A stretch of DNA of 57,556 bases from a virus (IMGVR_UViG_3300044210_000034:1-57556); one strand, 5' to 3'; shown: positions 3,308 through 46,635, counted from the stretch's first letter. Notes: generated by a model not told the origin, from the letters alone. Numbers and translations are program-made.

Positions 3308-3625
3308 ATGACCGCGATCACCACCGACACGACGTTCGTCACCGAGACCCTGGTCACCGACACCGTGACCTACGAGATCATCGGCCGGACCGCCAAGACG
3401 ATCACCATTCGGACCACGATCAGCGGCGACGTGGTGAAGAGCCAGGACCCGGGCAGCGGCTACCCGCAGGTGTGGTGCGAGGCGATCAGCGACCCCGAGG
3501 GCGCGACCTACACCCTGCGGCTGCGCAAGGACGGCACGTACCGGCGGGCCACGTGGGCGAACGCGCTGCGCCCGGCGGCCGTGATCGACGGCAAGCCGGT
3601 CAGCTACACCGACTACTCGTTCTGA
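3308..3625 (+). CDS. Hypothetical protein, single-gene cassette
   Basis: GAAGGG SD; bounded by palindromes on both sides. Confidence 0.75.
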   Translation: MTAITTDTTFVTETLVTDTVTYEIIGRTAKTITIRTTISGDVVKSQDPGSGYPQVWCEAISDPEGATYTLRLRKDGTYRRATWANALRPAAVIDGKPVSYTDYSF

Positions 3626-3632
3626 CCGCCAC

Positions 3633-3672
3633 TACTGCACCCCCTTGACATCATGCTCAAGGGGGTGCAGTA
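3633..3672 (+). promoter_or_regulatory. Palindromic promoter/operator
   Basis: TACTGCACCCCCTTGACATCATGCTCAAGGGGGTGCAGTA; consensus TTGACA -35. Confidence 0.85.
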
Positions 3673-3713
3673 TTGAGACATCAGCAGGGCACCACCGAGA
3701 GAAGGGCACCGAG

Positions 3714-3974
3714 ATGAGCGCGCAGGCCGAGACCAGCCCCGAGCGGTTCGTCATCTTCGAGATCGAGGGCGGCTGCACCTGCTGCCAGCCCGGCGCCCGC
3801 GAGACGGTCCTGCCGTCCGGCTGGCGCGAGCGGGCCGAGGACGCCGGGATCTTCTCGGTCGCCGAGCTGCTGGCCGCCCCGCACGGGGTCGACCCGGCCC
3901 GGATCGTGCAGGTCGCCGCGTGCAACGCGCCCTTCGACCGCGCGCACCTGGACTGGCTGCGCTCGCTCGCCTGA
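3714..3974 (+). CDS. Hypothetical protein with a CTCC motif
   Basis: Same leader (AAGGGCACCGAGATG) as the 3308 gene. Confidence 0.7.
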   Translation: MSAQAETSPERFVIFEIEGGCTCCQPGARETVLPSGWRERAEDAGIFSVAELLAAPHGVDPARIVQVAACNAPFDRAHLDWLRSLA

Positions 3975-6792: not shown

Positions 6793-7383
6793 ATGACCGC
6801 CGCCGACCTCGACTTCGACGACATCGAGACCTTCGTTCGCAAGCCCACCGACGGGCAGATGCAGTTCGTCACCGACCTGCGCAACGACTGGCAGCGCGCC
6901 GAGAACGAACTGTCGGTGCTGGCCGGTCGCCCCGCCCGCAACCCCGCATGGGCCGACCCGACCTCGTTCGAGCAGGCGTCCGAGATGATCGAGAACGGCA
7001 AGGCCGCCCGGACCGCCATCCGCGAGCAGCTCACGCAGGCGCGCCGTGCCGCCCGGCTCACCGCCGACGGCAGCCGCTACGACGTCACCGAGGGAATGTG
7101 GATCGTCGGCACCGTTGGCGCCGAGGGGTGCCGGATCTTCAAGGTGCAGCGCGCCGTCAACGGCTCGGGCCGCCTGTACGCCAAGGAACTGATCGACGAC
7201 TCGTTCGAGTACCTGCCCGGCGGGATCACCACCGTGGCGACCACCGCCCGCAAGATGGCGCTCGCCGAGGCGCAGGCGTTCGGTCGGCTCTACGGCACCT
7301 GCTGCAAGTGCGGCCGGACGCTGACCGACGAGGGCAGCATCGCGGCGGGCATCGGCCCGGTGTGCGCGGGCAAGGGCTGGTAG
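6793..7383 (+). CDS. DUF6011-like Zn-finger protein
   Basis: C-terminal CCKCGRTLTDEGSIAAGIGPVC. Confidence 0.75.
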   Translation: MTAADLDFDDIETFVRKPTDGQMQFVTDLRNDWQRAENELSVLAGRPARNPAWADPTSFEQASEMIENGKAARTAIREQLTQARRAARLTADGSRYDVTEGMWIVGTVGAEGCRIFKVQRAVNGSGRLYAKELIDDSFEYLPGGITTVATTARKMALAEAQAFGRLYGTCCKCGRTLTDEGSIAAGIGPVCAGKGW

Positions 7384-7394
7384 CCGGTGCGTTC

Positions 7395-7430
7395 GAGAGC
7401 CCCCGGGTGTCGACTCCCCCGGGGGCTCTC
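7395..7430 (+). terminator. Stem-loop terminator
   Basis: GAGAGCCCCCGGG...CCCGGGGGCTCTC just after the stop. Confidence 0.65.
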
Positions 7431-7565
7431 TCGCGCGAACCGGGCTCGCCCCGCTGGCAGGCAGGAACGCCCGGCGCCGACAGGGTATGCGCCACCCTTG
7501 CAGTAGTCAACCCCCTTGAGCTACATTCTGTGCATACCTACTGACCCCTACCAGGGAGGCTGACC

Positions 7566-7997
7566 GTGGTCCGCGTGCCACCGACCGACACCGAGCTGCA
7601 CGAGTTCTACGCGAGCTACCCCACGGCCTACGCGCAGTGCCGGACGTGGAAGCACGGCCCCGAGCGGCCCTACACCGTCGAGCGCCCGAACGGGCGCAAC
7701 GGCGTCATCGAGGTGACCCGGGTCTGCCAGTGCGGGCGCCTGGTCACCCGGGTGTTCACCGCCGCCTACCAGCGGTTGCCCGAGCAGACCCGGGTCGTTT
7801 ACCCCTCGAACCCGCGCTACCTCGCGCTGCCGGGCACCGGCGGCGTCGACCGCGACCTGATCGCCCGCCGGGCGATCGAGGGCGACATCGAGCAGATCGA
7901 GGCGGCCACCGCCGCCCGTCCGGCCGCCGCTCGGCGTGGTGGCCGGACGGGTAACGGCAACGGCTCGACCGGCCGGAAGCGTCCACGCAAGAGCTGA
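7566..7997 (+). CDS. Hypothetical protein with a basic tail
   Basis: GGGAGG SD; C..H..CQCG motif. Confidence 0.7.
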   Translation: MVRVPPTDTELHEFYASYPTAYAQCRTWKHGPERPYTVERPNGRNGVIEVTRVCQCGRLVTRVFTAAYQRLPEQTRVVYPSNPRYLALPGTGGVDRDLIARRAIEGDIEQIEAATAARPAAARRGGRTGNGNGSTGRKRPRKS

Positions 7998-8046
7998 CCC
8001 GGCGAGACCATGTGCTCGCCACCACCACCCCACCGGAGAGAAGATC

Positions 8047-8712
8047 ATGACCATGACGCAGCCGCCGCCCACCGAGCGGGTCAACTACCGGGTGCCGGAC
8101 GCTCGGCCGTACCCGCCGCCCCCGCCGGTGGCCTACCGGCCGCAGTACCGCCCGCCGGTGGCCGACCCCGAGCGCCCGCCCCGGGTCATCACCGGCACCA
8201 CTGTGGCGGTGACGCTGCTCGGGGCGGCCCTGCTCGGCTCGGTGACCGGGCTCGGGCTCGGCGCGCTGCGCATCATGGGCCAGCCGGACGCCCCGGCGCC
8301 CGCACCGGGCGGCACGTCCGTGGTCGTGGTCGCCTCGCCGTCGGACACGCCCAAGGCGCCCCCGCGTCGGGCGAACCCCGTCCGGACGACCGTCCGGTCG
8401 GTCGAGGTCACCCCGTCCGCGTCCGAGTCGGCCAGCCCGGACAAGCCGTCCGGACGTCCGTCCGACCCGGGCGCGCAGGGCAACGGGCAGGCGTCCGGCC
8501 AGCCGGACGGGCAGGCGTCCGGCAGCCCGGACGCGCCGGACCCCGGCAAGCACAAGGGCGAGGTGCTCTGCCCGGACGGCACGGTGCTGCCGCCCGGCAC
8601 GCCGCTGAACCAGTGCCCGAGCGCCTCGCCGTCCGACCCGAGCCCGCCCGGCGGCGACAGCCCCACCGGGTCGCCGTCCGGCCCGTCCCCCGCCCCCTCG
8701 GCCACCGCCTGA
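8047..8712 (+). CDS. Single-TM Pro/Ser-rich membrane protein
   Basis: GGAG SD; hydrophobic segment followed by a low-complexity region rich in CGTCCG. Confidence 0.65.
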   Translation: MTMTQPPPTERVNYRVPDARPYPPPPPVAYRPQYRPPVADPERPPRVITGTTVAVTLLGAALLGSVTGLGLGALRIMGQPDAPAPAPGGTSVVVVASPSDTPKAPPRRANPVRTTVRSVEVTPSASESASPDKPSGRPSDPGAQGNGQASGQPDGQASGSPDAPDPGKHKGEVLCPDGTVLPPGTPLNQCPSASPSDPSPPGGDSPTGSPSGPSPAPSATA

Positions 8713-8722
8713 GCGGACGCAC

Positions 8723-8769
8723 GAGAGCCCCGGCACCGATCAGGGAAGAGAGATCGGGCCGGGGCTCTC
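8723..8769. terminator. Bidirectional terminator between convergent units
   Basis: GAGAGCCCCGGC...GCCGGGGCTCTC; second hairpin ATCGAGCCCCGCCGTC-GAGAG-GACGGCGGGGCTCGAT at about 8801-8838. Confidence 0.65.
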
Positions 8770-8864
8770 ACGTACCACCGGAAGACACCAGCCTCGCAGC
8801 ATCGAGCCCCGCCGTCGAGAGGACGGCGGGGCTCGATCGGCTCGGGGGGTCCGCGTCGCGACCG

Positions 8865-9422
8865 TCAGGCCAGCGTAGACCCCCACCACATCTCGGCCAT
8901 GAGCACCAGTGCCAGCACCACCGTGAACGCCGACTCGGCGAACGAGTGGGTGCGCCGCGAGCCCGCGAGCCGCTCGACGGCCGACTGCTTGGCCGAGACC
9001 CGCAGTCCGAGCCCGTGCCTCGGGCTGCCCCGCCACGGCCAGCGCGGGATGCCCTTGGGGATGGACCGGCCGCCCTTGCCGAACAGGTAGTCGAACGGCC
9101 AGAGGTGGGAGAACCAGCCGAGGGCCGGGCCGAAGCACGGCCACGGCAGCCCGGCGACGGCCACCCCGACCAGGACGGCCACCGGCCAGCCCCACCAGTG
9201 CAGCGCCCGCCGGTGCCCGAGGCGCCGCTTGAGCCACCCCCGGTTGTCCGCGTCCGGGCTGAACCGCCCGGCCGAGAACGGGACGGCCAGCGCGGCGCAG
9301 GCGGCCACCTGCCCGAGCGGCAGGGGATCGAACTGCCCCGTCCGGCGGGCGACCTCGATCTGCACCAGGCCGAGCCCGAACGTGAACGCCGCCGCCCCGA
9401 TCATGTGTCCCGGACCCATCAT
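8865..9422 (-). CDS. Membrane-bound metal-dependent hydrolase (YdjM/DUF457-like)
   Basis: MMGPGH, PDAD, HRRALH and SH...D motifs among TM segments. Confidence 0.65.
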   Translation of the reverse strand: MMGPGHMIGAAAFTFGLGLVQIEVARRTGQFDPLPLGQVAACAALAVPFSAGRFSPDADNRGWLKRRLGHRRALHWWGWPVAVLVGVAVAGLPWPCFGPALGWFSHLWPFDYLFGKGGRSIPKGIPRWPWRGSPRHGLGLRVSAKQSAVERLAGSRRTHSFAESAFTVVLALVLMAEMWWGSTLA

Positions 9423-10351
9423 GACGTCCGCCTCCCCGCACGCTTACGGGCCGCCTCGGGGTTGGTGCCGAGCAGGGCTGCCAGGGTCGGCCAGTCGTTC
9501 GGCCGTCCGGCCGCCTCCCACGCCTTCCAGACGTCCGCCTCGGGCAGCCCGGCGTCCGGGGCGTCCGCCCATGCCGTCCGGCCGGACGCGGGCCGCTCGG
9601 CGACCGCCGTCCGGGCCAGCGTCCGGACGGCGCCGTTCGCGTGCCCGACCGTCCGGGCGGGCTCGGCCGGACGCAGCGCGTCCGGCAGGACGAACGGGTG
9701 CGTCCGGACGGGCAGACTGTCCGGGCGTCCGCCCGGCTCGACGTCCGGGCGGGCGCCCACCGTCCGGGCGGGCGCGTCCGGCTCGGCGTCCGGGCGGGTA
9801 GCCTCGGCCGCGTCCGGGCGGGCGTCCGTCGTGGCGTCGTGGCGCCCGTCCGGCTCGGCGGCCGGATGGACGTCCGGGCGTCCGGGCATCGGCCGGTTGG
9901 CGAACCACAGGGCGATCACGGACGCGACCGCGAGCCCGTCGACCGCCACGGCCCCGGTGACCCGCAGCAGCCACGGCTCGCCCCACGAGGCCAGCAGCAG
10001 CACCGTGTGCCAGAACGACAGGCTGTAGGCGCAGACGCCGATGCCGAGCATGACCGGCAGGGTGGCCCGGCCGAGCAGTCGCCGCGCCACCTGCTCGGCG
10101 GCGATCAGCACCATGACCGGCAGGGTGGCGGCGAACGCTGCGAACCCCCACGAGCCCACCTGGTGCGGCACCGGCAGGCCAGCCTTGACCAGCTCGGCCG
10201 CCTCGTACGCCGAGGGCACGTGCGGGCTCGCGTGGGCGATGTTGACCGCGACCGACACACCGGCGGCGAGCAGCGCGCCCGCCCATGCCCATGCGCGGTC
10301 ACCACGCGAGGGCGCGTGCCCTGCGTGCTCGGCGGGCGGGTTGATTACCAT
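9419..10351 (-). CDS. DUF2637/SpdB-like spread protein: TM helices, repeat linker, C-terminal HTH-like segment
   Basis: SVAVNIAHA and AVDGLAVAS motifs, several TMs, WPTLAALLGTNPEAARKR tail. Confidence 0.6.
   Translation of the reverse strand: MVINPPAEHAGHAPSRGDRAWAWAGALLAAGVSVAVNIAHASPHVPSAYEAAELVKAGLPVPHQVGSWGFAAFAATLPVMVLIAAEQVARRLLGRATLPVMLGIGVCAYSLSFWHTVLLLASWGEPWLLRVTGAVAVDGLAVASVIALWFANRPMPGRPDVHPAAEPDGRHDATTDARPDAAEATRPDAEPDAPARTVGARPDVEPGGRPDSLPVRTHPFVLPDALRPAEPARTVGHANGAVRTLARTAVAERPASGRTAWADAPDAGLPEADVWKAWEAAGRPNDWPTLAALLGTNPEAARKRAGRRTS
9504..9886 (+). repeat. Dense CGTCCG direct-repeat array inside a CDS (clt-like)
   Basis: About 20 copies of CGTCCG counted in ~380 bp, in all three codon phases. 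Confidence 0.8.
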
Positions 10352-10370
10352 GATCCGTCACTCTCTGTAA

Positions 10371-10500
10371 GATCGTCCAGTGCGTTGGACGATGCGCGTG
10401 CAACCGATGCGTGACCTTGCCCTATAGCCCCCGGAAACCGTCCAACCATGATCCAACTGGACGATCTTCCGGACGATCCTTGGACGATCCTTGGACGATT
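10371..10500. repeat. GGACGAT iteron-like array and inverted repeat
   Basis: GGACGAT at 10459, 10471, 10482, 10493; inverted pair ATCGTCC (10372)/GGACGAT (10387). Confidence 0.8.
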
Positions 10501-10540
10501 CGATCACGCAGAGTGAGCCGTCCAGTGCTCCACCCACAAC

Positions 10541-10578
10541 ACTACACCCCCTTGAGCATCGACTCAAGGGGGTGTAGT
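10541..10578 (-). promoter_or_regulatory. Palindromic promoter/operator oriented leftward
   Basis: Reverse complement reads ACTACACCCCCTTGAG-TCGATG-CTCAAGGGGGTGTAGT. Confidence 0.8.
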
Positions 10579-10600
10579 AGAACGGGGTGCACTACCGGCG

Positions 10601-13186
10601 TCACGCCCGGCGGCGCACCTTCCGGTGGCGCTCGCCGAGCCGGTAGACGTCGGCCCCGTTCGGCCCGGCGCCGCGCAGCCGTTCGAGGTGCCCCTGATTG
10701 GCGAGCACCCGCAGGTAGGCGGCCACGCTCGACCGCCCGTCGGTCGCCTCGACACTGGCGAGCGCGTCCTGCGCCTCGGCCCGGGTGAACCCCGCCTCGC
10801 CCCGCGCCGAGGCCAGCGCCGACAGGCAGGCGTTGACCGCGTCCGGCAGCCGCTCGCCCTGGTCGAGCTGCCACGTCCGGTCACGCCAGGCACCGACCAG
10901 CTCGGCCCGCTCGGCGGGCGTCCGGCCGCGCTCGCGGGCGGCTGCCCACGCCGTCACGTCGAGCGCCCGGTCGATCTTGACGCTCATCTCGTCGAGGGAG
11001 TCCATCCCGTCCGTCCTTCCTGCCTCGGTGTCCGGCAGCACCTCGTCGTCGAGTTCGCCCGCCTCGGCCGCCTCGCGCATCATCCGCTCGATGGCCGCCT
11101 CGTCGTCCTCGTCGTCCGTCCGGGTGGACGCGGGTGCGTCCGGACGCAGCGGCCGGACGTTGGCGACGTCCGCCTGCACCGCCCGGTCGGCCGCCTCGTC
11201 GTCCTCGGCGTCCGGGCCGGACAGGTGCACCCCGTCCGCCCGCGTCCGGGCAACCGCGTCCGCGTCCGGGCGTCCGGGCGCGTCCGTCCGGGGGTCCGGA
11301 CGGGCCACCGGCGCGGCGGGCGCCGTCCGGGTGGCCGGACGGTCGCCGAGTCTCGGCACGATGTCGCCCTCGGCCGCCGGGGGCAGCGCCTCGTCGACCT
11401 CGTCGTCGAACCCGAGGTCGTCCGGGACGTCCGGGCCGTCCACCCCGTCGGCGGGCGGCTCGGATAGCAGCGGGTCGACCGCGACCGGGGCCGCCGGGGC
11501 GGACACCGAGACCGCCCCGGCCGCGACCGGCGCGGCGCCCACGATCATGCCCTCGTTGCCCGGCAGACAGCGCGAGGTGCTGATCTTCCGGATGGTCATG
11601 ACGTCGTGCAGCTCGAACGTCCGGCCCGCCGACCACTCGTCGTTGAGCGTGATCAGCACGGTGCCCTTGGCGCCGTCGCCGAACTTGCTCATGTCCGGCA
11701 TCCCCCGGTCGCGCCAATCCGGGATGATGTTGGTCTGCTCGATCGCCCGGCGGACCGGCAGCACGGCGATGCCGAAAGCGTTCGCCTTGACGTCGCCCGA
11801 GCCGAGGTGTTCGAGCACCGCCCGCTGCGAGGCAATGATCAGAATGACCATCTCGGACGCGCCCGCCTTCAGGATGCCGTTCACCAGCTCGATGGCCCTG
11901 CGGCCCTCGGGCGTGCGCTTGGTCATCAGGAACGACGCCTCATCGACGATGATCAGCTCAATGGGCTCTTCGGCGGTCGGGACGTGCTTCGAGCGGCCAC
12001 GCCGCCCGTTCAGCTCGGCCCGCTCGGCGATCAGGTCGACCGCCCGCTGAAGCGCGGACAGCGCGCCGTGCACCGCCTTGGGGCCGCCGTAGACCCGGTG
12101 CACGGCGGGCGCCCAGTTCGCGGCGTCCTTCATGCCCTTGAGAATGTCGATCATCGTGATGCGCACGAGCGGCCGGTTCGCGCCGTCCCGCGCCCGGGTG
12201 AGGTGCTCGACGATGTTGTTGATCAGGTTCGTCTTGCCGCCCCGGGTACCGGCGATCAGGACCCAATGCACCCCGCCGTCGCTGTTGACGATCTCGATGG
12301 TGAGGTCGCGCTCGGTCTCGGGGTCGCGCCCGATCACGAACGGGCCGATCGGGTCGACCCGCTTCAGCCCGAAGTCGGGCGCGAGCGGGTGCGGGATGCC
12401 CTTCGCCCACGGGTTCGACAGCCACTCGCTGATCTCGATGTGCCCGGCGTGCGTCGCGGACGGCGCGACCCGGACCTTGCCCGGCGCCATCCCGGCCGCC
12501 GCCGCGAGCTGCTCGGCAAGCTCGCCGTTCTTCGCCAGCGTCGAGGCGGTCTTGCCGGTGCCCCGCACGTCGATCGTCTTGCGGGTGCCGACGGCGGTCT
12601 GCGTGGTCCGGACGATGGCCGCACCGGCAAGCCCGACCCGGCGGGCGACCGGGGCGAAATCGCGCTGCGCCCGCTCCCACGCCACCTTGCCGCCCACGAA
12701 CTTGGCGACGTACAGCCACGCCCACGCGCAGCAGCCGAACAACCAGTAGGCGAGCAGCATCGGCTCATTGATCACGTCCTTGCCGAACGGCACGCCGAGG
12801 TGGTGCTTGCTCCACCAGAGCATGACCCACCCGGTGCCGACGATCGGCAGCGCGGTGGTGCGCAGCGCCCACTGACGGGCCATCGCCTCGGACCCGGGCA
12901 CGTGGCGGTTCACCGCGTAGGTGATGATCGCCAGCCCGAGCCCGATGCAGATGATCAGCGCCGGGTCGCCCCAGAACGCCAGCGGGATGCCGATCATCAG
13001 CAGCAGCAGGAGAAAGATCGGGGTCAGCCGGGTGGCGACCCGGCGCCCGATCCACTGCGCCGCCGAGATGGCGGCGACCGTCTTCAGCCCGACGGGGCGC
13101 GAGCGGATGTACCCGCCGCGCCCGCCGTGGCCGCCGTGATGCCCACCTCCCCCGTACGGGTCGTAGGGCTCGACTTCCCTGCTCAT
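10601..13186 (-). CDS. FtsK/SpoIIIE-family DNA translocase, TraB-like
   Basis: N-terminal TMs; Walker A GTRGGKT, Walker B LIIVDEAS, SQR motif; acidic linker; C-terminal wHTH-like FTRAEAQ...SSVAAYLRVLANQGHLERL...GADVYRL. Confidence 0.85.
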   Translation of the reverse strand: MSREVEPYDPYGGGGHHGGHGGRGGYIRSRPVGLKTVAAISAAQWIGRRVATRLTPIFLLLLLMIGIPLAFWGDPALIICIGLGLAIITYAVNRHVPGSEAMARQWALRTTALPIVGTGWVMLWWSKHHLGVPFGKDVINEPMLLAYWLFGCCAWAWLYVAKFVGGKVAWERAQRDFAPVARRVGLAGAAIVRTTQTAVGTRKTIDVRGTGKTASTLAKNGELAEQLAAAAGMAPGKVRVAPSATHAGHIEISEWLSNPWAKGIPHPLAPDFGLKRVDPIGPFVIGRDPETERDLTIEIVNSDGGVHWVLIAGTRGGKTNLINNIVEHLTRARDGANRPLVRITMIDILKGMKDAANWAPAVHRVYGGPKAVHGALSALQRAVDLIAERAELNGRRGRSKHVPTAEEPIELIIVDEASFLMTKRTPEGRRAIELVNGILKAGASEMVILIIASQRAVLEHLGSGDVKANAFGIAVLPVRRAIEQTNIIPDWRDRGMPDMSKFGDGAKGTVLITLNDEWSAGRTFELHDVMTIRKISTSRCLPGNEGMIVGAAPVAAGAVSVSAPAAPVAVDPLLSEPPADGVDGPDVPDDLGFDDEVDEALPPAAEGDIVPRLGDRPATRTAPAAPVARPDPRTDAPGRPDADAVARTRADGVHLSGPDAEDDEAADRAVQADVANVRPLRPDAPASTRTDDEDDEAAIERMMREAAEAGELDDEVLPDTEAGRTDGMDSLDEMSVKIDRALDVTAWAAARERGRTPAERAELVGAWRDRTWQLDQGERLPDAVNACLSALASARGEAGFTRAEAQDALASVEATDGRSSVAAYLRVLANQGHLERLRGAGPNGADVYRLGERHRKVRRRA

Positions 13187-14205
13187 CAGGCCGTCTCCCC
13201 CCAGTAGGTGTTGTTCGGGTCCATCCCGGGGATGTGCCCGTCGGTCGCGGCGGCGGTCTCCCGCACGCCCTCGTAGGTGCTCATGTAGTCCTGCGCGTGG
13301 TTGGTGATGCCGCTCGCCGCCTCGCTCAGGTGCTCGGCCGCCTCTTCGAGCCCGGCCATCACCGAGGGGTGCATGTTGACCTCTGCTTCGAGCAGCTCGC
13401 GGTGCTCGCGGAGCTTCTCGCCGAGGTCGCCGAGATCCTGCGCGAACTGCTCGGCCCACTGCGCGTGCGCGGCGTCGGTCTCGGGGGCTTCCCCGAGCGC
13501 GTCCGCCCCGCCGCCGTAGCCGCCGCCGCTGGTGGGCTGAGACATGGTGGTTCCTCCACTGGTGGGTGCTGGTGCCGGTGGTGCCGCTGGTGCCGGTGCC
13601 GGGGCTGGCGCCGGGGCTGGTGCTGCTGGTCGGTGGGGCAACCTCGTAGGCTGCCCGGTGGTGCCGCCGCGCGGCGCTGGCCCGCTAGTCCCCGGAGAAG
13701 GCCGCCGACCCGTCGGCGCAGGGGAAGCAGGTCGCGGCGGGGGCGCAGGCTGTCCGCCCCCGCCGCCCGCACCGCCGCCTCGCGGGATGCCCGAGCCGGT
13801 CATCGTGGTGCCGCCGACCTGCCACCACTTGCGCTTGGGCCGGGTGCCCTTGGGGTAGACCACCATGCCGGGGCCGACCTTGTAGGGCTTGGGCTGCCCG
13901 CTGCTCGACGGCCGGGAGGACGGGCGCCCGGTGCCCTTGCCGCCCGTTCCGCGCCCCTTGCCGCCAGTCCACGAGCCGCGCAGCGGGATCTCGCTCTTGC
14001 CGTGACGGCGCCGCCAGCGGTTGACCGCCCGGATGACCGAGCGGCCCGCCGCCCCGCCGACGCGGTGCCGCAGGTTGTCGGTGTGGGTGTGGTGCCGGAA
14101 ACCCGCCCAGAACCCCCGGCCGCCACGCCGCCGGGTGGTCGTGCGACGGCGCCGGGGCGGGTAGCTGTACCCGCCCCGGCTGCCGCGTCCGCGCCTGGTC
14201 GCCAT
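13186..14205 (-). CDS. Arg/Gly/Pro-rich protein with C-terminal helical (WXG100-like) domain; strong internal start at 13545
   Basis: Stop overlaps the translocase ATG; GGAGG SD before MSQPTSGG. Confidence 0.6.
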   Translation of the reverse strand: MATRRGRGSRGGYSYPPRRRRTTTRRRGGRGFWAGFRHHTHTDNLRHRVGGAAGRSVIRAVNRWRRRHGKSEIPLRGSWTGGKGRGTGGKGTGRPSSRPSSSGQPKPYKVGPGMVVYPKGTRPKRKWWQVGGTTMTGSGIPRGGGAGGGGGQPAPPPRPASPAPTGRRPSPGTSGPAPRGGTTGQPTRLPHRPAAPAPAPAPAPAPAAPPAPAPTSGGTTMSQPTSGGGYGGGADALGEAPETDAAHAQWAEQFAQDLGDLGEKLREHRELLEAEVNMHPSVMAGLEEAAEHLSEAASGITNHAQDYMSTYEGVRETAAATDGHIPGMDPNNTYWGETA

Positions 14206-14523: not shown

Positions 14524-15087
14524 ATGAAGTGTGAAGAGTGCGGCGGGCTCGGCGAGGTCCCCGAGCCGGTCGTCGGCACGCAGATCAGGACCCACCGGGG
14601 CAAGCTCGAACGGGGCTGGCGGCGCACGTGGCTGATCGGCAAGCTCGCCCGGTCCGAGGGCACGAACGCCGCGCTCGCCGAGGCGCTCGACGTCGTGCCG
14701 TCCGCGATTCAGCAGTTCAAGGCGCGCCACGCCGCCGACATCGAGGCCGAGCGCGAGCGGCTGGCCGACCAGATCACCGGGCTGTGGATCGCCGACAAGC
14801 TCGCCCGGCTGGCCGAGCATCAGCAGGACGTCGAGGACATCAACGGGATCATCGAGGGCAAGCTCGACGCGGCCACCCCGACCCCGTGGAACCCGTTGGA
14901 GCCCGAGAACGACGGCGCGAGCAAGCCCTCGGCGGTCGACGACCTGCCCGCGTGGCTGCGCGTCAAGACCGCCATCCTGCACGCGGCGGCCGAGGAGTTG
15001 GGCCAGCTCCCGCAGCGGGTCAACGTGCAGGTCGGCGGCAGCCTGGTCACGTACAAGATCGAGGGCGTCGACATGGACCGGGTGTGA
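14524..15087 (+). CDS. terS: Terminase small subunit (putative)
   Basis: Directly before terL; HTH-like segment and typical VQVGG..VTYKIEGVD tail. Confidence 0.7.
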   Translation: MKCEECGGLGEVPEPVVGTQIRTHRGKLERGWRRTWLIGKLARSEGTNAALAEALDVVPSAIQQFKARHAADIEAERERLADQITGLWIADKLARLAEHQQDVEDINGIIEGKLDAATPTPWNPLEPENDGASKPSAVDDLPAWLRVKTAILHAAAEELGQLPQRVNVQVGGSLVTYKIEGVDMDRV

Positions 15088-15091
15088 TCGC

Positions 15092-16471
15092 ATGAGCGCG
15101 CAGCCCGTCGAGCTGATCCACACCTTCCGGCCCCGGGGGAGCGCCGTCGAGGTGCTGCACGCCCGCGAGGCCGAGGTCGTGATGTCCGGCCCGGCGGGCA
15201 CCGGCAAGAGCCGGGCGTGCCTCGAAAAGCTGCTGCTGCAAGCACTGAAGTACCCCGGGATGCGCGGGCTCATCCTGCGCAAGACGCAGGTCAGCCTCGG
15301 CCCGTCGGCGCTGAAGACGTGGCGGCGCGACGTGGCCGTCGAGGCGCTGCGCAACCGCACCCTGTGGTTCTACGGCGGCAGCGCGGAGGAGTCGGCGCAG
15401 TACCGGTTCGCGAACGGCAGCTCGATCGTGGTCGGCGGGATGGACAACCCGACCAAGATCATGAGCACCGAGTACGACGTGATCTACGTGCAGGAGGCCA
15501 CCGAACTGACGGTGACCGACTGGGAGTACGCCCTCACCCGGCTGCGCAACCACCGGATGCCGTACCAGCAGATTTACGCCGACTGCAACCCGGACACCCC
15601 GACGCATTGGCTCAAGGTCCGGTGCGACGCCGGGCGGGCGCGGATGATCTACTGCCGCCACGAGGACAACCCCGTGCTGTTCGACGAGGTGGCCGGTCCG
15701 GACGGCGAGCCCGAGTACGTGCTCACCGAGCAGGGCGCCGAGTACATGGCGAAGCTCGACAGCCTGACCGGCGTGCGCTACCTGCGCCTGCGCAAGGGGC
15801 TGTGGGTCGCGGCCGAGGGCGTGATCTTCGAGGACTTCGCCCCCGACGTGCACCTGATCGACACGATGCCCGACGGGTGGGAGAGCTGGCCGAGGTACTG
15901 GTCGGTCGACTTCGGCTACACCAACCCGTTCGTGTGCCAGATGTGGGCCGAGGACCCCGACGGGCGGCTGTACCTCTACCGCGAGTTCTACATGACCGGG
16001 CGCACCGTCGACCGGCACGCCCGGGACATCCTGAAGGTGATCACCAAGCCGGACCGGTTCGGCAACCCGGTGTGGACCGAGCCCCGGCCGCACATGATCC
16101 TCGCCGACCACGACGCCGAGAACCGCGCCCGGTTCGAGAACGAGATCGGGCTCGGCACGACGGCGGCCGACAAGAACGTCAAGGACGGCATCGAGGTCAC
16201 GCAGGCGCGGTTCCGGCTGGCCGGTGACGGCAGGCCGCGCATCTTCCTGCTGCGCACCGCACTGGTCGAGCGCGACGGCAACCTCGAAGACGTCCGCAAG
16301 CCCTGCTCGACGGTCGAAGAGCTGCCCGGCTACGTGTGGCTGCCCTCGAAGGACGGCAAGGCAGTCAAGGAAGAGCCGCTCAAGCTCAACGATCACGGGA
16401 TGGACGCGATGCGCTACCTCTGCAAGGAACGAGACCCGCTCGCGCGGCCCGGCATCCGGATCATCCGGTGA
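15092..16471 (+). CDS. terL: Terminase large subunit (PBSX-like)
   Basis: GPAGTGKS, YVQEATE, DCNP, VDFGYTNP, DHGMDAMRY. Confidence 0.95.
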   Translation: MSAQPVELIHTFRPRGSAVEVLHAREAEVVMSGPAGTGKSRACLEKLLLQALKYPGMRGLILRKTQVSLGPSALKTWRRDVAVEALRNRTLWFYGGSAEESAQYRFANGSSIVVGGMDNPTKIMSTEYDVIYVQEATELTVTDWEYALTRLRNHRMPYQQIYADCNPDTPTHWLKVRCDAGRARMIYCRHEDNPVLFDEVAGPDGEPEYVLTEQGAEYMAKLDSLTGVRYLRLRKGLWVAAEGVIFEDFAPDVHLIDTMPDGWESWPRYWSVDFGYTNPFVCQMWAEDPDGRLYLYREFYMTGRTVDRHARDILKVITKPDRFGNPVWTEPRPHMILADHDAENRARFENEIGLGTTAADKNVKDGIEVTQARFRLAGDGRPRIFLLRTALVERDGNLEDVRKPCSTVEELPGYVWLPSKDGKAVKEEPLKLNDHGMDAMRYLCKERDPLARPGIRIIR

Positions 16472-16856: not shown

Positions 16857-17005
16857 TGGGCGCAGTGCGCGTTGCAACAGCCGCAGATGTTCCACGTCTC
16901 GCGGCGGCACCAGCAGGCGACCGCCCGCTCGCGGGCATCACCGCTCGGCGCGGTGGGGTGCACGGCGGTCTCGAAGTTCTTGATCGGAAGCAGGGTCCGG
17001 GGCAT
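16805..17005 (-). CDS. Antisense Cys/His-rich small protein
   Basis: GGAAGGA SD; CWC...CGCCNAHCAHH. Confidence 0.45.
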   Translation of the reverse strand: MPRTLLPIKNFETAVHPTAPSGDARERAVACWCRRETWNICGCCNAHCAHHDSVAPSVPSPSAPVE

Positions 17006-17028
17006 CGTCGGTTCCTTCCGGTGGAGGC

Positions 17029-18492
17029 GTGATGTCGTTCCTCACTGCTATCGGTCGTCGCGCAGGGTCGGCTGTAGCCGCCGTTCGGGTGACCGACTCG
17101 GCGCCGGTGCCGTACGTCGCGGCCGGGCGCACGAACGTGTTCAGCCCGATGAACCAGGTCGGTGACCAGACCGCGCAGATGCGGGCGATGGGTCAGGTCG
17201 GCGTGCTCTTCGCCATGATCGACAAGCTGTCGACGGGCGTCGCCTCGGCGAACTGGCGGTTGTACCGCAAGGCGCGCAGCGGCCGGAAGGAAGACCGCAT
17301 CGAGGTCACCGAGCACCCGGCCCTGGTGGTGCTGAACAAGCCGAACCCGTTCTACACGCGGCAGGAGTTGTTCGAGGCGTCGCAGCAGCACCAGGACTTG
17401 ACCGGCGAGACCTGGTGGGTGCTGGCCCGCAACGCCCGGGTCGGCGGACTGCCCGTCGAAATCTGGCCGGTCCGCCCGGACCGGATGCAGCCGGTCACGA
17501 GCCCGACCGAGTTCATCACCGGCTACGTCTACACCGACCCCGACGGCCGCAAGGTCCCGCTCGACCTGAACGACGTCATCTTCATCCGGCGGCCGAACCC
17601 GCTCGACCCGTTCCGGGGCATCGGCCCCGTGCAGTCAGTGCTCGCGTACATCGACGGCGAGCACTACTCGGCGATGTGGAACCGCAATTTCTTCCTGAAC
17701 GGCGCCATTCCCGGCGGCATCATCGAGGTCGAGAAGCGCCTGAGCGACCCCGAGTTCGACCAGATGTCGGCCCGCTGGAAGGAACAGCACCAGGGAATCG
17801 CCAACGCGCACCGCGTCGCCATTCTCGAACAGGCGAAGTGGATCGATGTCAAGTACACGCAGGAAGACATGCAGTTCGCGCAGCTCTCTGCGCTGTCCGA
17901 CGAGAAGATCCGGCAGGCGCTCGGCTTCCCCAAGCCGATGCTCGGCACCGTCGAGGACGTCAACCGCGCCAACGCCGAGGCGGCGGCGTTCGTGTTCGCC
18001 GCGTGGTGCCTGGTGCCGCGCCTCGACCGGATGCGCGCCGCGCTGAACGCCGACTTCCTGCCCAAGTTCCCGGCGTCCGACGGGTTGGAGTTCGACTACG
18101 ACTCGCCGGTGCCCGAGGACGAGGCGGCCGAGAACACCGCCCGCACCTCGAAGGTCGACGCGGTCACCAAGCTGGTGGCGGCCGGGTTCGACGCCGCCGA
18201 GGTGCTGGAGTGGGCCGAGATGCCCGCCCTCACCTACTCCAAGCCCGCGCCGCCCGCGCTGCCCGGTCCTCCACCCGGTCAGGGCGGCGCGGGCTTGGAC
18301 ACCGAGAAGGACCCGGCCCGCACCGAGATCGAGAAGGGCGCCGACGAGGGCGCGCAGACCGACGCGGTGTACCAGCTCGGCCGGTTCATCATGGAAGCGC
18401 CCGAGGGCGCCGAGCGCGAGCGCCGGATCGAGGCGCTGCGCGCCCTCGCCCGCGCGGCCGACGCGCAGCGGGACCGGGCACTGCCGTGGTAG
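17029..18492 (+). CDS. Portal protein (HK97 family)
   Basis: HPALVVLNKPNPFYT, GIGPV, FFLNGAIPGG, NRANAE. Confidence 0.93.
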   Translation: MMSFLTAIGRRAGSAVAAVRVTDSAPVPYVAAGRTNVFSPMNQVGDQTAQMRAMGQVGVLFAMIDKLSTGVASANWRLYRKARSGRKEDRIEVTEHPALVVLNKPNPFYTRQELFEASQQHQDLTGETWWVLARNARVGGLPVEIWPVRPDRMQPVTSPTEFITGYVYTDPDGRKVPLDLNDVIFIRRPNPLDPFRGIGPVQSVLAYIDGEHYSAMWNRNFFLNGAIPGGIIEVEKRLSDPEFDQMSARWKEQHQGIANAHRVAILEQAKWIDVKYTQEDMQFAQLSALSDEKIRQALGFPKPMLGTVEDVNRANAEAAAFVFAAWCLVPRLDRMRAALNADFLPKFPASDGLEFDYDSPVPEDEAAENTARTSKVDAVTKLVAAGFDAAEVLEWAEMPALTYSKPAPPALPGPPPGQGGAGLDTEKDPARTEIEKGADEGAQTDAVYQLGRFIMEAPEGAERERRIEALRALARAADAQRDRALPW

Positions 18493-46282: not shown

Positions 46283-46289
46283 GGAACCG

Positions 46290-46535
46290 AGGGGAAAACC
46301 GCAGGTCAGAGGTAGGGGAAAAGATCAACAGCCCCGTGACCTGCGGTTTTCCCCTTTTCAAGATCGCTAAGAGCCCGAAAGGGAAAGAAGGGGAATCGGA
46401 CATGTCGGGCGAGGGGAAAACAGGGGAACGCCCTGACCTGCGGTTTTCCCCTACTTTCCCCTTGTTTCCCCCCCCCCGGGGAAAGAGGGGGAAGACCCCC
46501 CGGGGGCCGTAGGCCCGGGGGTTTCCCCTTCCCCC
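46290..46535. other. Candidate replication origin
   Basis: AGGGGAAAACCGCAGGTCA at 46290 and its reverse complement at 46337 and 46434; many GGGGAA/TTCCCC tracts; directly after Prim-Pol. Confidence 0.6.
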
Positions 46536-46635
46536 ACCGGTCCGAGTGCGGGTACTTCCTCAAGATCACAGAACTACTCAAGCCGGCGTGGTAATGTATA
46601 GGGTGCAGTAAGTCCGACGAGAGGGAGATCATCCG

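Follow-up and report, generated by a model that had tools for sequence, protein, structure and literature searches.

Arrays of a lineage-specific 7-8-bp word in linker-coding DNA of a phage FtsK/TraB-like translocase module: candidate clt-like recognition sites

The window, the whole 57,556-nucleotide stretch of DNA analyzed here (a 57.5-kb genome), belongs to a phage of high-GC actinobacteria; its terminase, portal, primase-polymerase, and WhiB genes identify a tailed phage rather than a plasmid. No DNA-level relatives were found among the 185,579 species genomes searched, and those recovered are all viral or metagenomic contigs. Gene frames and strands were assigned by GC3 frame analysis. 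The plus-strand gene g1 (8047-8712; GC3 0.92 in frame) encodes a small putative membrane protein with a P/Y-rich N terminus, a single hydrophobic segment, and a tail rich in S, P, D, and G, and the correct frame returns no Pfam match. On the minus strand, g2 (8865-9422) encodes a hydrophobic protein that is kept in the relatives L001 and L002 (74-77% identity) and carries no motif cluster. The adjacent minus-strand gene g3 (9419-10351; GC3 0.93) combines a hydrophobic N-terminal half, a linker rich in RPD, RT, and PDA, and a short basic C-terminal tail. It has no Pfam match at E values up to 1, including DUF2637 (PF10935) and any HTH; its Atlas feature score of 0.88-0.89 to DUF2637 (+HTH_23) clusters, with DUF2637+HTH_23/HTH_38 clusters among the neighbors, makes a resemblance to DUF2637 membrane/HTH proteins a lead only. 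The upstream gene of the same module, g5 (13186-14205, minus strand), encodes a protein with an R-rich N terminus and a helical C terminus, and contains a low-complexity PAPAP stretch.

The central gene, g4 (10601-13186, minus strand), encodes an FtsK/TraB-like dsDNA translocase of 861 aa. Hydrophobic N-terminal stretches (long ones at residues ≈55-165, read directly and conserved in the alignment) are followed by a motor, an acidic, RPD-containing linker, and a winged helix, a TraB/FtsK architecture that agrees with the translocase and C-terminal wHTH named in an earlier note on this DNA. The protein matches PHROG 1358 (FtsK/SpoIIIE-like, 3.4e-9), and a Walker A motif, GTRGGKT, and a Walker B motif, IIVDEA, are read in the translation. 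It has no match to Pfam FtsK_SpoIIIE (PF01580) at the gathering score; five of the 15 members of its family match that profile weakly (best E 0.0023). The motor (11519-12514, minus strand; modelled residues 225-556, AF2 mean pLDDT 82.0, pTM 0.80) is predicted to have the RecA-like FtsK fold: the best PDB match of the model in Foldseek is the Escherichia coli FtsK motor (2ius_F, E 1.2e-12, TMq 0.66), followed by TcpA and EccC. The C-terminal domain (about 10637-10843, minus strand; AF2 mean pLDDT 82.8) is modelled as three helices plus a beta hairpin. The best PDB matches checked are all winged-helix DNA binders (E ≈0.01, probability up to 1.00), and the matches include Fur/Zur, ArsR/CadC, MarR, MukE, and histone H1; the FtsK gamma domain is not among the matches listed. 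The homologous domain in the relative L018 scores above the Pfam cut-off for FaeA and also matches HTH_29, and the putative recognition helix of the g4 domain is VAAYLRVLAN. In tblastn searches, full-length g4 has no match at E 1e-5 among plasmids and g4 has none at that threshold in the phage collection; the motor domain finds weak plasmid matches (best 7e-6), with 23 of the 27 records from Streptomyces.

When every 6-mer and 7-mer of the window was scanned without bias, CGTCCG and CGTCCGG ranked highest for clustering. CGTCCG occurs 171 times throughout, compared with 170.57 expected (sd 13.05) from dinucleotide shuffles, so the signal is one of clustering and not of overall excess. Seventy-two of these sites lie between 8000 and 11500, 6% of the window, an interval that holds three clusters. 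The other 99 (104.4 expected under a maximal-order Markov model) are spread at 1.83 per kb over both strands, and further clusters are absent, with no other 400-bp window of the genome holding at least five sites. Cluster 1 (8315-8680, in g1) has 12 copies on the plus strand and 5 on the minus strand; cluster 2 (9504-9886, in g3), the densest, has 20 and 4; and cluster 3 (11113-11433, in g4) has 15 and 4. The earlier note had put the counts at about 12, 20, and 15, and its label of translocase linker for the third cluster is correct, since the motor and the C-terminal winged helix flank 11113-11433 on either side. The positions are tail- or linker-coding parts of g1, g3, and g4, and the 19 word copies in the translocase linker constitute a short-repeat cluster at or overlapping the 3′ part of g4. 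Sparser plus-strand copies continue from cluster 3 down to 10840. The array word spans 7-8 bp, (G/C)CGTCCGG(G/C), with a repeat unit of about GCGTCCGG. A plus-strand bias despite opposite gene strands, also claimed previously, is found for the three clusters together (47 versus 13, with g1 on the plus strand and g3 and g4 on the minus strand), but by our own estimate the 12:5 split of the g1 cluster alone is not significant, and L001 and L002 show no strand preference (15:15 in the translocase gene). Given this absence of polarity in both relatives, orientation is not a conserved feature.

The clusters exceed expectation at the level of composition and of codon choice. Local dinucleotide shuffles (500) yield means of 2.3, 2.9, and 3.5 sites for clusters 1, 2, and 3, with maxima of 7, 9, and 10, against 17, 24, and 19 observed. 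Synonymous-codon nulls built on whole genes never reach the summed count observed in g1, g3, or g4 (0 of 5000 permutations each). Synonymous permutation of the linkers alone predicts 6.6 (maximum 14), 12.6 (maximum 20), and 9.2 (maximum 16) sites in clusters 1, 2, and 3, and again none of 5000 permutations reaches the observed count in any of them. Individual codons reflect this excess: xCG-TCC-G spells nine of 12 [PAST]-S-(G..) tripeptides in g1, although TCC makes up 14% of the Ser codons used in reference genes; R-T is CGG-ACG in 7/7 cases and P-D-(G..) is CCG-GAC-G in 8/8 in g3; and CGG-ACG spells seven of the 11 R-T dipeptides in g4. The word also falls in different codon phases. Sense-strand CGGACG in g3 coincides with R-T in seven cases, with x-D-x (such as PDA or PDV) in 11, and with x-G-R in three, and sense-strand CGTCCG in g1 lies mainly on P/A-S-G/D. 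These results bear out the varied phases described in the earlier note and support selection or structure at the DNA level and not on peptides alone.

The arrays recur in relatives. In L001 and L002 (70-71% amino acid identity), CGTCCG is clustered in the translocase linker and in g3, in L002 also in the g1 equivalent, and the clusters exceed codon nulls (0/3000). Third codon positions of the window inside motif sites are identical to L001 and L002 at frequencies of 0.88 and 0.84, compared with 0.57 and 0.61 outside sites (Fisher p 0.001 and 0.013), values that may be inflated by the tendency of low-complexity DNA to align motif with motif. More distant relatives carry other words. L013 and L015, 35-36% identical to the window and 46% to each other, have TGACCC in the translocase and g3 linkers; a rare T-ending codon precedes GAC-CCN in six of nine cases in L013 (T3 5.4%, p 2e-6), and a T-ending codon does so in 4/4 (translocase) and 3/4 (g3) in L015. 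L017 has GTGGCC in both genes, where 2/3000 and 0/3000 permutations reach the count. The matrix of matched and mismatched words is block-diagonal: the three lineages reach densities of 39-65, 19-53, and 50 per kb with their own words and 0-8 per kb with those of the others. The DNA-level signal is therefore strong and lineage-specific: the arrays exist, beat peptide and codon expectation, recur in relatives, and change their word with lineage. Covariation of repeat and winged helix, suggested in the earlier note, is found insofar as the motif tracks lineage and the recognition region is conserved within word-sharing lineages and different between them. The C-terminal tail of g3 covaries with lineage in the same way, however, so that covariation does not single out the translocase. 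L003 (49% identity), with a similar C-terminal half of the helix, has neither the long linker nor a CGTCCG cluster.

A second set of repeats occupies the g4-g3 spacer (10352-10600, minus strand). A perfect 16-nt hairpin (10541-10578) is followed by four direct copies of ATCGTCC(A/G) with an 11-bp period at about 10458-10499 (3.7 copies in TRF), flanked by TGGACG, and an inverted pair, ATCGTCCA..TGGACGAT, stands immediately ahead of the g3 start. The fourfold ATCGTCCA array is distinct from the linker word and is in the classical clt position, directly downstream of the translocase gene. The ATCGTCCA word recurs at the same position in L002, L013, and L015 despite their different linker words.

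Among FtsK-family systems, FtsK-KOPS and SpoIIIE-SRS are similar in that an FtsK-fold motor and a winged helix would be expected to read an 8-bp asymmetric word. KOPS and SRS are distributed across the whole chromosome and skewed towards dif. Outside the three clusters, by contrast, the word here is at background density without strand skew, as seen in 2-kb bins of the window, G001, and G002, and we rejected orienting sequences of the KOPS/SRS type given the absence of a genome-wide skewed distribution in all three.

The closest likeness is to TraB and clt (TRS repeats) of the Streptomyces conjugative plasmids pSVH1, pJV1, pIJ101, and pWTY27. PMC4447253, PMC3583192, and PMC4170104 describe a hexameric, FtsK-like dsDNA pump that is anchored in the membrane and ends in a winged helix, as proposed for g4, and that binds clustered 8-bp clt repeats, in line with the earlier note. 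They also describe element-specific words of 7-9 bp grouped beside the 3′ part of the tra gene or running into it, and membrane-protein genes (spd) after the pump gene, where putative membrane-protein genes also follow g4. According to PMC3583192 and PMC4447253, TraB contacts the 8-bp repeats through helix alpha-3 of the winged helix, and the pWTY27 clt lies partly inside traA. The present arrays differ in belonging to a tailed phage and not to a conjugative plasmid or AICE, and they are larger (17-24 hexamers each, 72 in 3.5 kb) and sit inside the linkers of three genes, whereas the clt loci in those same texts span 50-180 bp and are mostly non-coding. We tentatively favor, at a little short of an even chance, the explanation that the arrays are clt/TRS-like sites recognized by the winged helix at the C terminus of the FtsK/TraB-like pump that the phage itself encodes. 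Counting against it are the strand balance of L001 and L002, the lack of a long linker and a CGTCCG cluster in L003, the covarying g3 tail, the separate ATCGTCCA array at the classical clt position, and the missing PF01580 match of g4.

Slippage, unequal recombination, or conversion of GC-rich units could instead have spread an 8-bp unit through linker DNA with no reader protein, which we judge somewhat unlikely. Within the clusters, TRF detects periods of 8, 12, 24, and 45 at 59-92% matches, and three 8-bp units make an in-frame 24 bp, which would place the word in all three phases. The translocase linkers of L001 and L002 contain an extra motif-rich insertion of ≈90-100 nt relative to the window, only six to seven of 14 window sites are conserved in place, and strand polarity is not conserved. 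Duplicated DNA carries its codon choices along and would also beat synonymous nulls. Against this origin, the spacing between sites is irregular (4-114 bp), the tandem structure is weak and irregular around a unit of ≈8 bp, and no long near-identical segments link the clusters. One word appears in three different genes and on both coding strands, but other low-complexity stretches carry other words; the PAPAP stretch of g5, an internal control free of CGTCCG clusters, has its own k-mer, TGGTGCCG. Synonymous positions are more conserved inside sites than outside, and the sharing of one word by translocase and g3 in each of three lineages is not expected from neutral slippage acting on the genes separately.

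The sites may also be read by a different product of the module, with the HTH-like C-terminal tail of g3 as the simplest candidate, or by another regulator, with a role in tethering, stability, or spreading; this we consider quite unlikely. The densest cluster lies within g3 itself, every g3 homolog examined (the window, L001, L002, L013, L015, L017, L003, and L020) has some clustered word in or near the linker, and the Atlas neighbors with DUF2637 and HTH_23/HTH_38 offer a lead. The core CGTCCGG is common to the linker word and the spacer word ATCGTCCGG. As a precedent, PMC4170104 describes SpdA2 of pIJ101 binding sps palindromes inside its own gene, a site embedded in the coding sequence of a Streptomyces transfer/spread module and visible as the recurrent peptide SRDD/E. 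There, sps is a 12-bp palindrome in two to three copies that is conserved across plasmids, whereas the word here is a 7-8-bp asymmetric one, present 17-24 times per gene and lineage-specific. Asymmetric 7-8-bp arrays correspond to the FtsK-family winged-helix mode, and dimeric HTH regulators prefer palindromes, like the spacer repeats. Moreover, Pfam detects no HTH in g3 of the window, the translocase linker carries the word at equal density, and the linker word TGACCC of L013 and L015 differs from the spacer word.

Selection on repeated peptides (RPD, PDA, RT; PSG, PSD), for example as interaction or modification motifs, would make the DNA word a side effect. Translocase and g3 linkers do have peptide repeats in common within a lineage (RPD/RT in the window, VTP in L013 and L015, VAP in L017), which leaves room for some peptide-level cause. 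Yet codon choice yields the word far above expectation when the peptides are held fixed, and the word spans three phases and unrelated peptides, P-S-G/D in g1 against P-D-A and R-T for the same strand; the synonymous-codon tests largely refute this explanation, and we hold it to be very improbable. Equally improbable are packaging (pac) or replication-origin repeats lying in genes by chance: the terminase genes begin at 14.5 kb, ≈3 kb away, and phage origins can lie inside linker-coding DNA, as lambda ori does within gene O, but across lineages the arrays follow the translocase and g3 linkers and not the terminase, and a non-coding, iteron-like AGGGGAAAA/TTTTCCCCT array in both orientations (≈46290-46540), directly after the primase-polymerase/helicase gene, is a better origin candidate.

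PMC13587820 and PMC10117723 report FtsK/SpoIIIE-like proteins without an assigned role in Streptomyces phages, and the passages covered describe no cis-acting site or winged-helix target for them. Under the clt-like reading of the arrays, words of 7-8 bp would be written into those parts of the translocase gene and two neighboring membrane-protein genes that code for sequence-tolerant tails and linkers, and their putative reader would be the winged helix of a membrane-anchored, hexameric FtsK/TraB-like pump. Two steps of this reading are inferred: binding of the word by this domain, and transport of phage dsDNA by the pump. The arrays would then form a clt/TRS-like loading zone of ≈3 kb that marks phage DNA for the pump, which may carry it from one hyphal compartment or cell to another, for instance, much as TraB transfers plasmids.

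CGTCCG shows no overall excess in the window, since 171 copies are seen against 170.6 expected. Its distribution is clustered, with 72 copies lying within 8000-11500, and we confirm three clusters at 8315-8680 (12 copies on the plus strand and 5 on the minus strand), 9504-9886 (20 and 4), and 11113-11433 (15 and 4), exactly where an earlier note on this DNA had placed them. Nowhere else in the window does a 400-bp interval hold at least five copies, and when all 6- and 7-mers are scanned without bias, no words in the genome cluster more strongly than CGTCCG and CGTCCGG; the extended consensus is CGTCCGG(G/C)C. Local dinucleotide shuffles yield 2.3, 2.9, and 3.5 copies per cluster as compared with the 17, 24, and 19 observed. 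Outside the clusters, 99 copies are observed against 158 under dinucleotide shuffles; because this depletion vanishes when the expectation is taken from a maximal-order Markov model (104), we claim no avoidance of the word.

The 57.5-kb virus genome (72% G+C) encodes a large terminase (14636-16471), a portal (16984-18492), a primase-polymerase/helicase, a ResIII helicase, a WhiB-like protein, and endonuclease VII; no integrase was found among the window ORFs scanned. The genes around the clusters were called by GC3 frame analysis as g1 (8047-8712, plus strand) and, on the minus strand, g2 (8865-9422), g3 (9419-10351), g4 (10601-13186), and g5 (13186-14205), and a long plus-strand ORF at 8010-10028 was discarded as spurious on account of its wrong GC3 pattern. 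Directly upstream of the translocase gene g4 lies g5, whose product combines an R-rich N-terminus with a PAPAP run and a helical C-terminus and matched no family. By tblastn it is kept alongside the translocase in the related loci L001, L002, and L003, and in L013 an ORF fragment on the upstream side of the translocase resembles it by eye only. Elsewhere in the genome, non-coding DNA at 46283-46635, directly after the primase-polymerase/helicase gene, contains AGGGGAAAA / TTTTCCCCT repeats in both orientations together with a C/G run, which makes it a candidate iteron-bearing replication origin.

All three clusters lie in low-complexity coding DNA, namely an S/P/D tail in g1, an RPD/RT linker in g3, and an acidic/RPD linker in g4, and we compared them with three codon nulls that keep the protein sequences fixed. 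Resampling from phage codon usage predicts 1.4, 6.3, and 8.6 dominant-strand copies in g1, g3, and g4, respectively, against 12, 21, and 20 observed; shuffling synonymous codons within each gene predicts 4.2, 9.5, and 11.2; and the summed count is reached in 0 of 5000 trials under either null. Permutation within the linkers only, the strictest of the three, gives 6.6, 12.6, and 9.2 against 17, 24, and 19 observed and again reaches the count in 0 of 5000, so that the enrichment over codon-shuffled sequence, a check named in the earlier note, holds under every synonymous null. The excess arises from fixed codon-pair choice: R-T is spelled CGG-ACG at 7 of 7 positions in g3 and 7 of 11 in g4 (≈13% expected), P-D-(G..) is spelled CCG-GAC-G at all 19 positions over the three genes, and [PAST]-S-(G..) is spelled xCG-TCC-G at 9 of 12 in g1 (TCC makes up 14% of Ser codons in reference genes). 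As the earlier note had described, CGTCCG falls in different codon phases, occupying all three and encoding unrelated peptides. Spacing within the clusters is irregular (4-114 bp), and the clusters share no long common segments, on which ground gene conversion or recent duplication between them was rejected. Together with the exceeded nulls and the three phases, these features indicate a DNA-level pattern in g1, g3, and g4 beyond peptide and codon composition, in keeping with the suggestion that selection acts on the DNA.

The translocase family comprises 18 proteins, known only from metagenomes and viral contigs; for roughly ten of them, among these P0004, P0005, P0008, P0009, P0011, P0012, P0014, P0015, and P0017, the protein sequence alone was at hand. 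Its closest members to the window reside on two syntenic viral contigs, L001 and L002 (records G001 and G002), which are 70-71% identical to it. The same word clusters recur in the translocase linker and g3 of both, and also in the g1 equivalent of L002; they are the sole such clusters in the 69-kb and 56.5-kb records, and codon permutation reaches them in 0 of 3000 trials. Across the aligned translocase linker, six to seven of the window's 14 7-mer sites are kept in place, and third-codon identity is 0.84-0.88 within sites versus 0.57-0.61 outside (Fisher p 0.001 and 0.013), a comparison to be read knowing that aligners tend to pair repeats. The plus-strand polarity reported earlier is real in the window (47:13); word orientation is balanced in L001 and L002 (15:15 in the translocase gene), so the polarity is not conserved and is a feature of the window genome only. 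An apparent strand switch around the G002 clusters was rejected, as full counts in 2-kb bins reveal no skew. G002 also carries a dense tandem array at ≈7230-7700, with 18-26 copies of the words ACCTGTCC and GCCAACCTG and no counterpart seen in the window. L001 has an additional gene, placed between translocase and g3, in which the winged-helix region from the translocase C-terminus occurs a second time (9272-9469; 39% identity to g4 residues 791-854).

More distant loci use other words in the same places. L013 and L015, which share 35-36% identity with the window and 46% between themselves, carry TGACCC(C)(G) in place of CGTCCG, with nine copies in the translocase linker and five in the g3 linker of L013, and seven and 14, respectively, in L015. 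Almost all of these copies share one orientation, and they exceed codon expectation. Where TGACCC falls on D-P, the preceding codon has a rare T end in 6 of 9 cases in L013 (T3 frequency 5.4%, p 2e-6); for L015 it does so in all 4 cases in the translocase and in 3 of 4 in g3. A further locus, L017, has GTGGCC in both translocase and g3, with counts reached in 2 of 3000 and 0 of 3000 permutations. When the three leading 6-mers from the linker of each locus were counted in every g3, the resulting table was block-diagonal, with 39-65, 19-53, and 50 per kb within lineages and 0-8 per kb across these three lineages. We consider the DNA-level, lineage-specific nature of the arrays to be well supported.

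Two loci were uninformative for this comparison, L003 because it lacks a long linker and L020 because no word stands out clearly in its linker. In L003, the translocase stop is followed directly by a non-coding GGGTCGGTTC array (7303-7410; ≈3 copies per strand; 21-nt inverted arms, 95% complementary), in the classical position of clt, the TraB-binding repeat locus of Streptomyces conjugative plasmids. L020, a distant relative, shows two further features, at 2846-2990 and ≈3460-3900: direct and inverted GTGACTGTGA / TCACAGTCAC repeats in the spacer after the translocase, and clustering of GTCCGCG within the g3-like gene's linker. Searches of phage and plasmid collections (blastn and tblastn, 1e-5) found no near relative, and neither did a species-genome scan. 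A metagenome scan contributed L013 as its single useful locus, plus a fragment; two additional viral scans yielded no new relatives, and a scan with g3 returned none. A relaxed motor-domain search gave weak Streptomyces plasmid matches only, and the motif array was not found in the best of these, L021.

The g4 protein has hydrophobic stretches at its N-terminus, followed by a motor whose model (pLDDT 82) best matches the Escherichia coli FtsK motor (E 1.2e-12), with TcpA, a conjugation coupling protein, and EccC as the next matches. At the sequence level it is not assigned to Pfam FtsK_SpoIIIE, and a PDB sequence search gave no match. The C-terminal domain beyond the linker is modeled as three helices and a beta hairpin (pLDDT 82.8); the structure matches listed for it are winged-helix DNA binders only, with weak E values, and its L018 homolog matches Pfam winged-helix families. 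The putative recognition region is conserved within word-sharing lineages and differs between them. By language-model features only, g3 resembles DUF2637(+HTH) membrane proteins. In some family members (L003 4701-6040 in G003; proteins P0013, P0016, and P0018), the translocase is interrupted directly after its Walker A lysine by an intein that contains a LAGLIDADG_3 (PF14528) domain.

A second array occupies the g4-g3 spacer (10352-10600). A perfect 16-nt hairpin at 10541-10578 is followed by ATCGTCC(A/G) in four direct copies with a period of 11 bp, and an inverted pair closely precedes the start of g3. The core of this word, CGTCC(GG), overlaps the linker word of the window. The spacer word is found at the same position in L002, L013, and L015 and thus also in lineages with the TGACCC linker word, which marks it as a separate, more conserved site; the spacer array is probably an operator.

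On Streptomyces plasmids, the available text of published studies describes TraB as assembling at clt, where its C-terminal winged helix recognizes 8-bp TRS repeats; clt words vary among plasmids, and the pWTY27 clt extends into traA by 16 bp (PMC4447253, PMC3583192, PMC4170104). SpdA2 is likewise described as binding palindromes within its own coding region (PMC4170104). In searches covering the main texts of open-access papers, we found no description of clt-like arrays in phages or within translocase linkers. By analogy with these systems, and from the co-variation of words and helix regions by lineage that the earlier note had looked to, the most economical reading is that the arrays are candidate recognition sites for the translocase winged helix, a reading we hold tentatively and rate at somewhat short of an even chance; the co-variation is shared by g3 as well. 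It is possible, though unlikely, that the arrays are a by-product of repeat dynamics; tandem structure in the clusters, with a unit of ≈8 bp, is weak. Binding by another protein of the module is a still more doubtful account, and g3 co-varies with the words as the winged helix does. Selection at the peptide level is highly improbable given a pattern that exceeds peptide and codon composition, and a role as packaging or origin repeats is just as improbable.

Taken further, recognition by the winged helix would fit a speculative joint reading, which we think rather unlikely as a whole, of an actinophage family with a Streptomyces-type conjugation pump and lineage-specific, dual-coding loading arrays. 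The pump gene and two neighboring membrane-protein genes would contain the loading sites in their disordered linkers, and the phage genome could move as naked dsDNA over hyphal cross-walls or from cell to cell without virions. The linkers would then be kept long and low in complexity as DNA sites first and peptide spacers second. The pairing of CGTCCGG, TGACCC, and GTGGCC with different winged helices offers natural material for a specificity swap. If the arrays are loading sites, selection on DNA words can shape long disordered linkers, which would urge general caution in interpreting low-complexity protein regions and could allow codon-level anomalies to predict binding words. FtsK/SpoIIIE-like genes are often annotated in Streptomyces phages with no role assigned in the available text (PMC13587820, PMC10117723), and such arrays would give them their first cis-acting target and would point to plasmid-style dsDNA transfer or spreading by a phage in a mycelial host.
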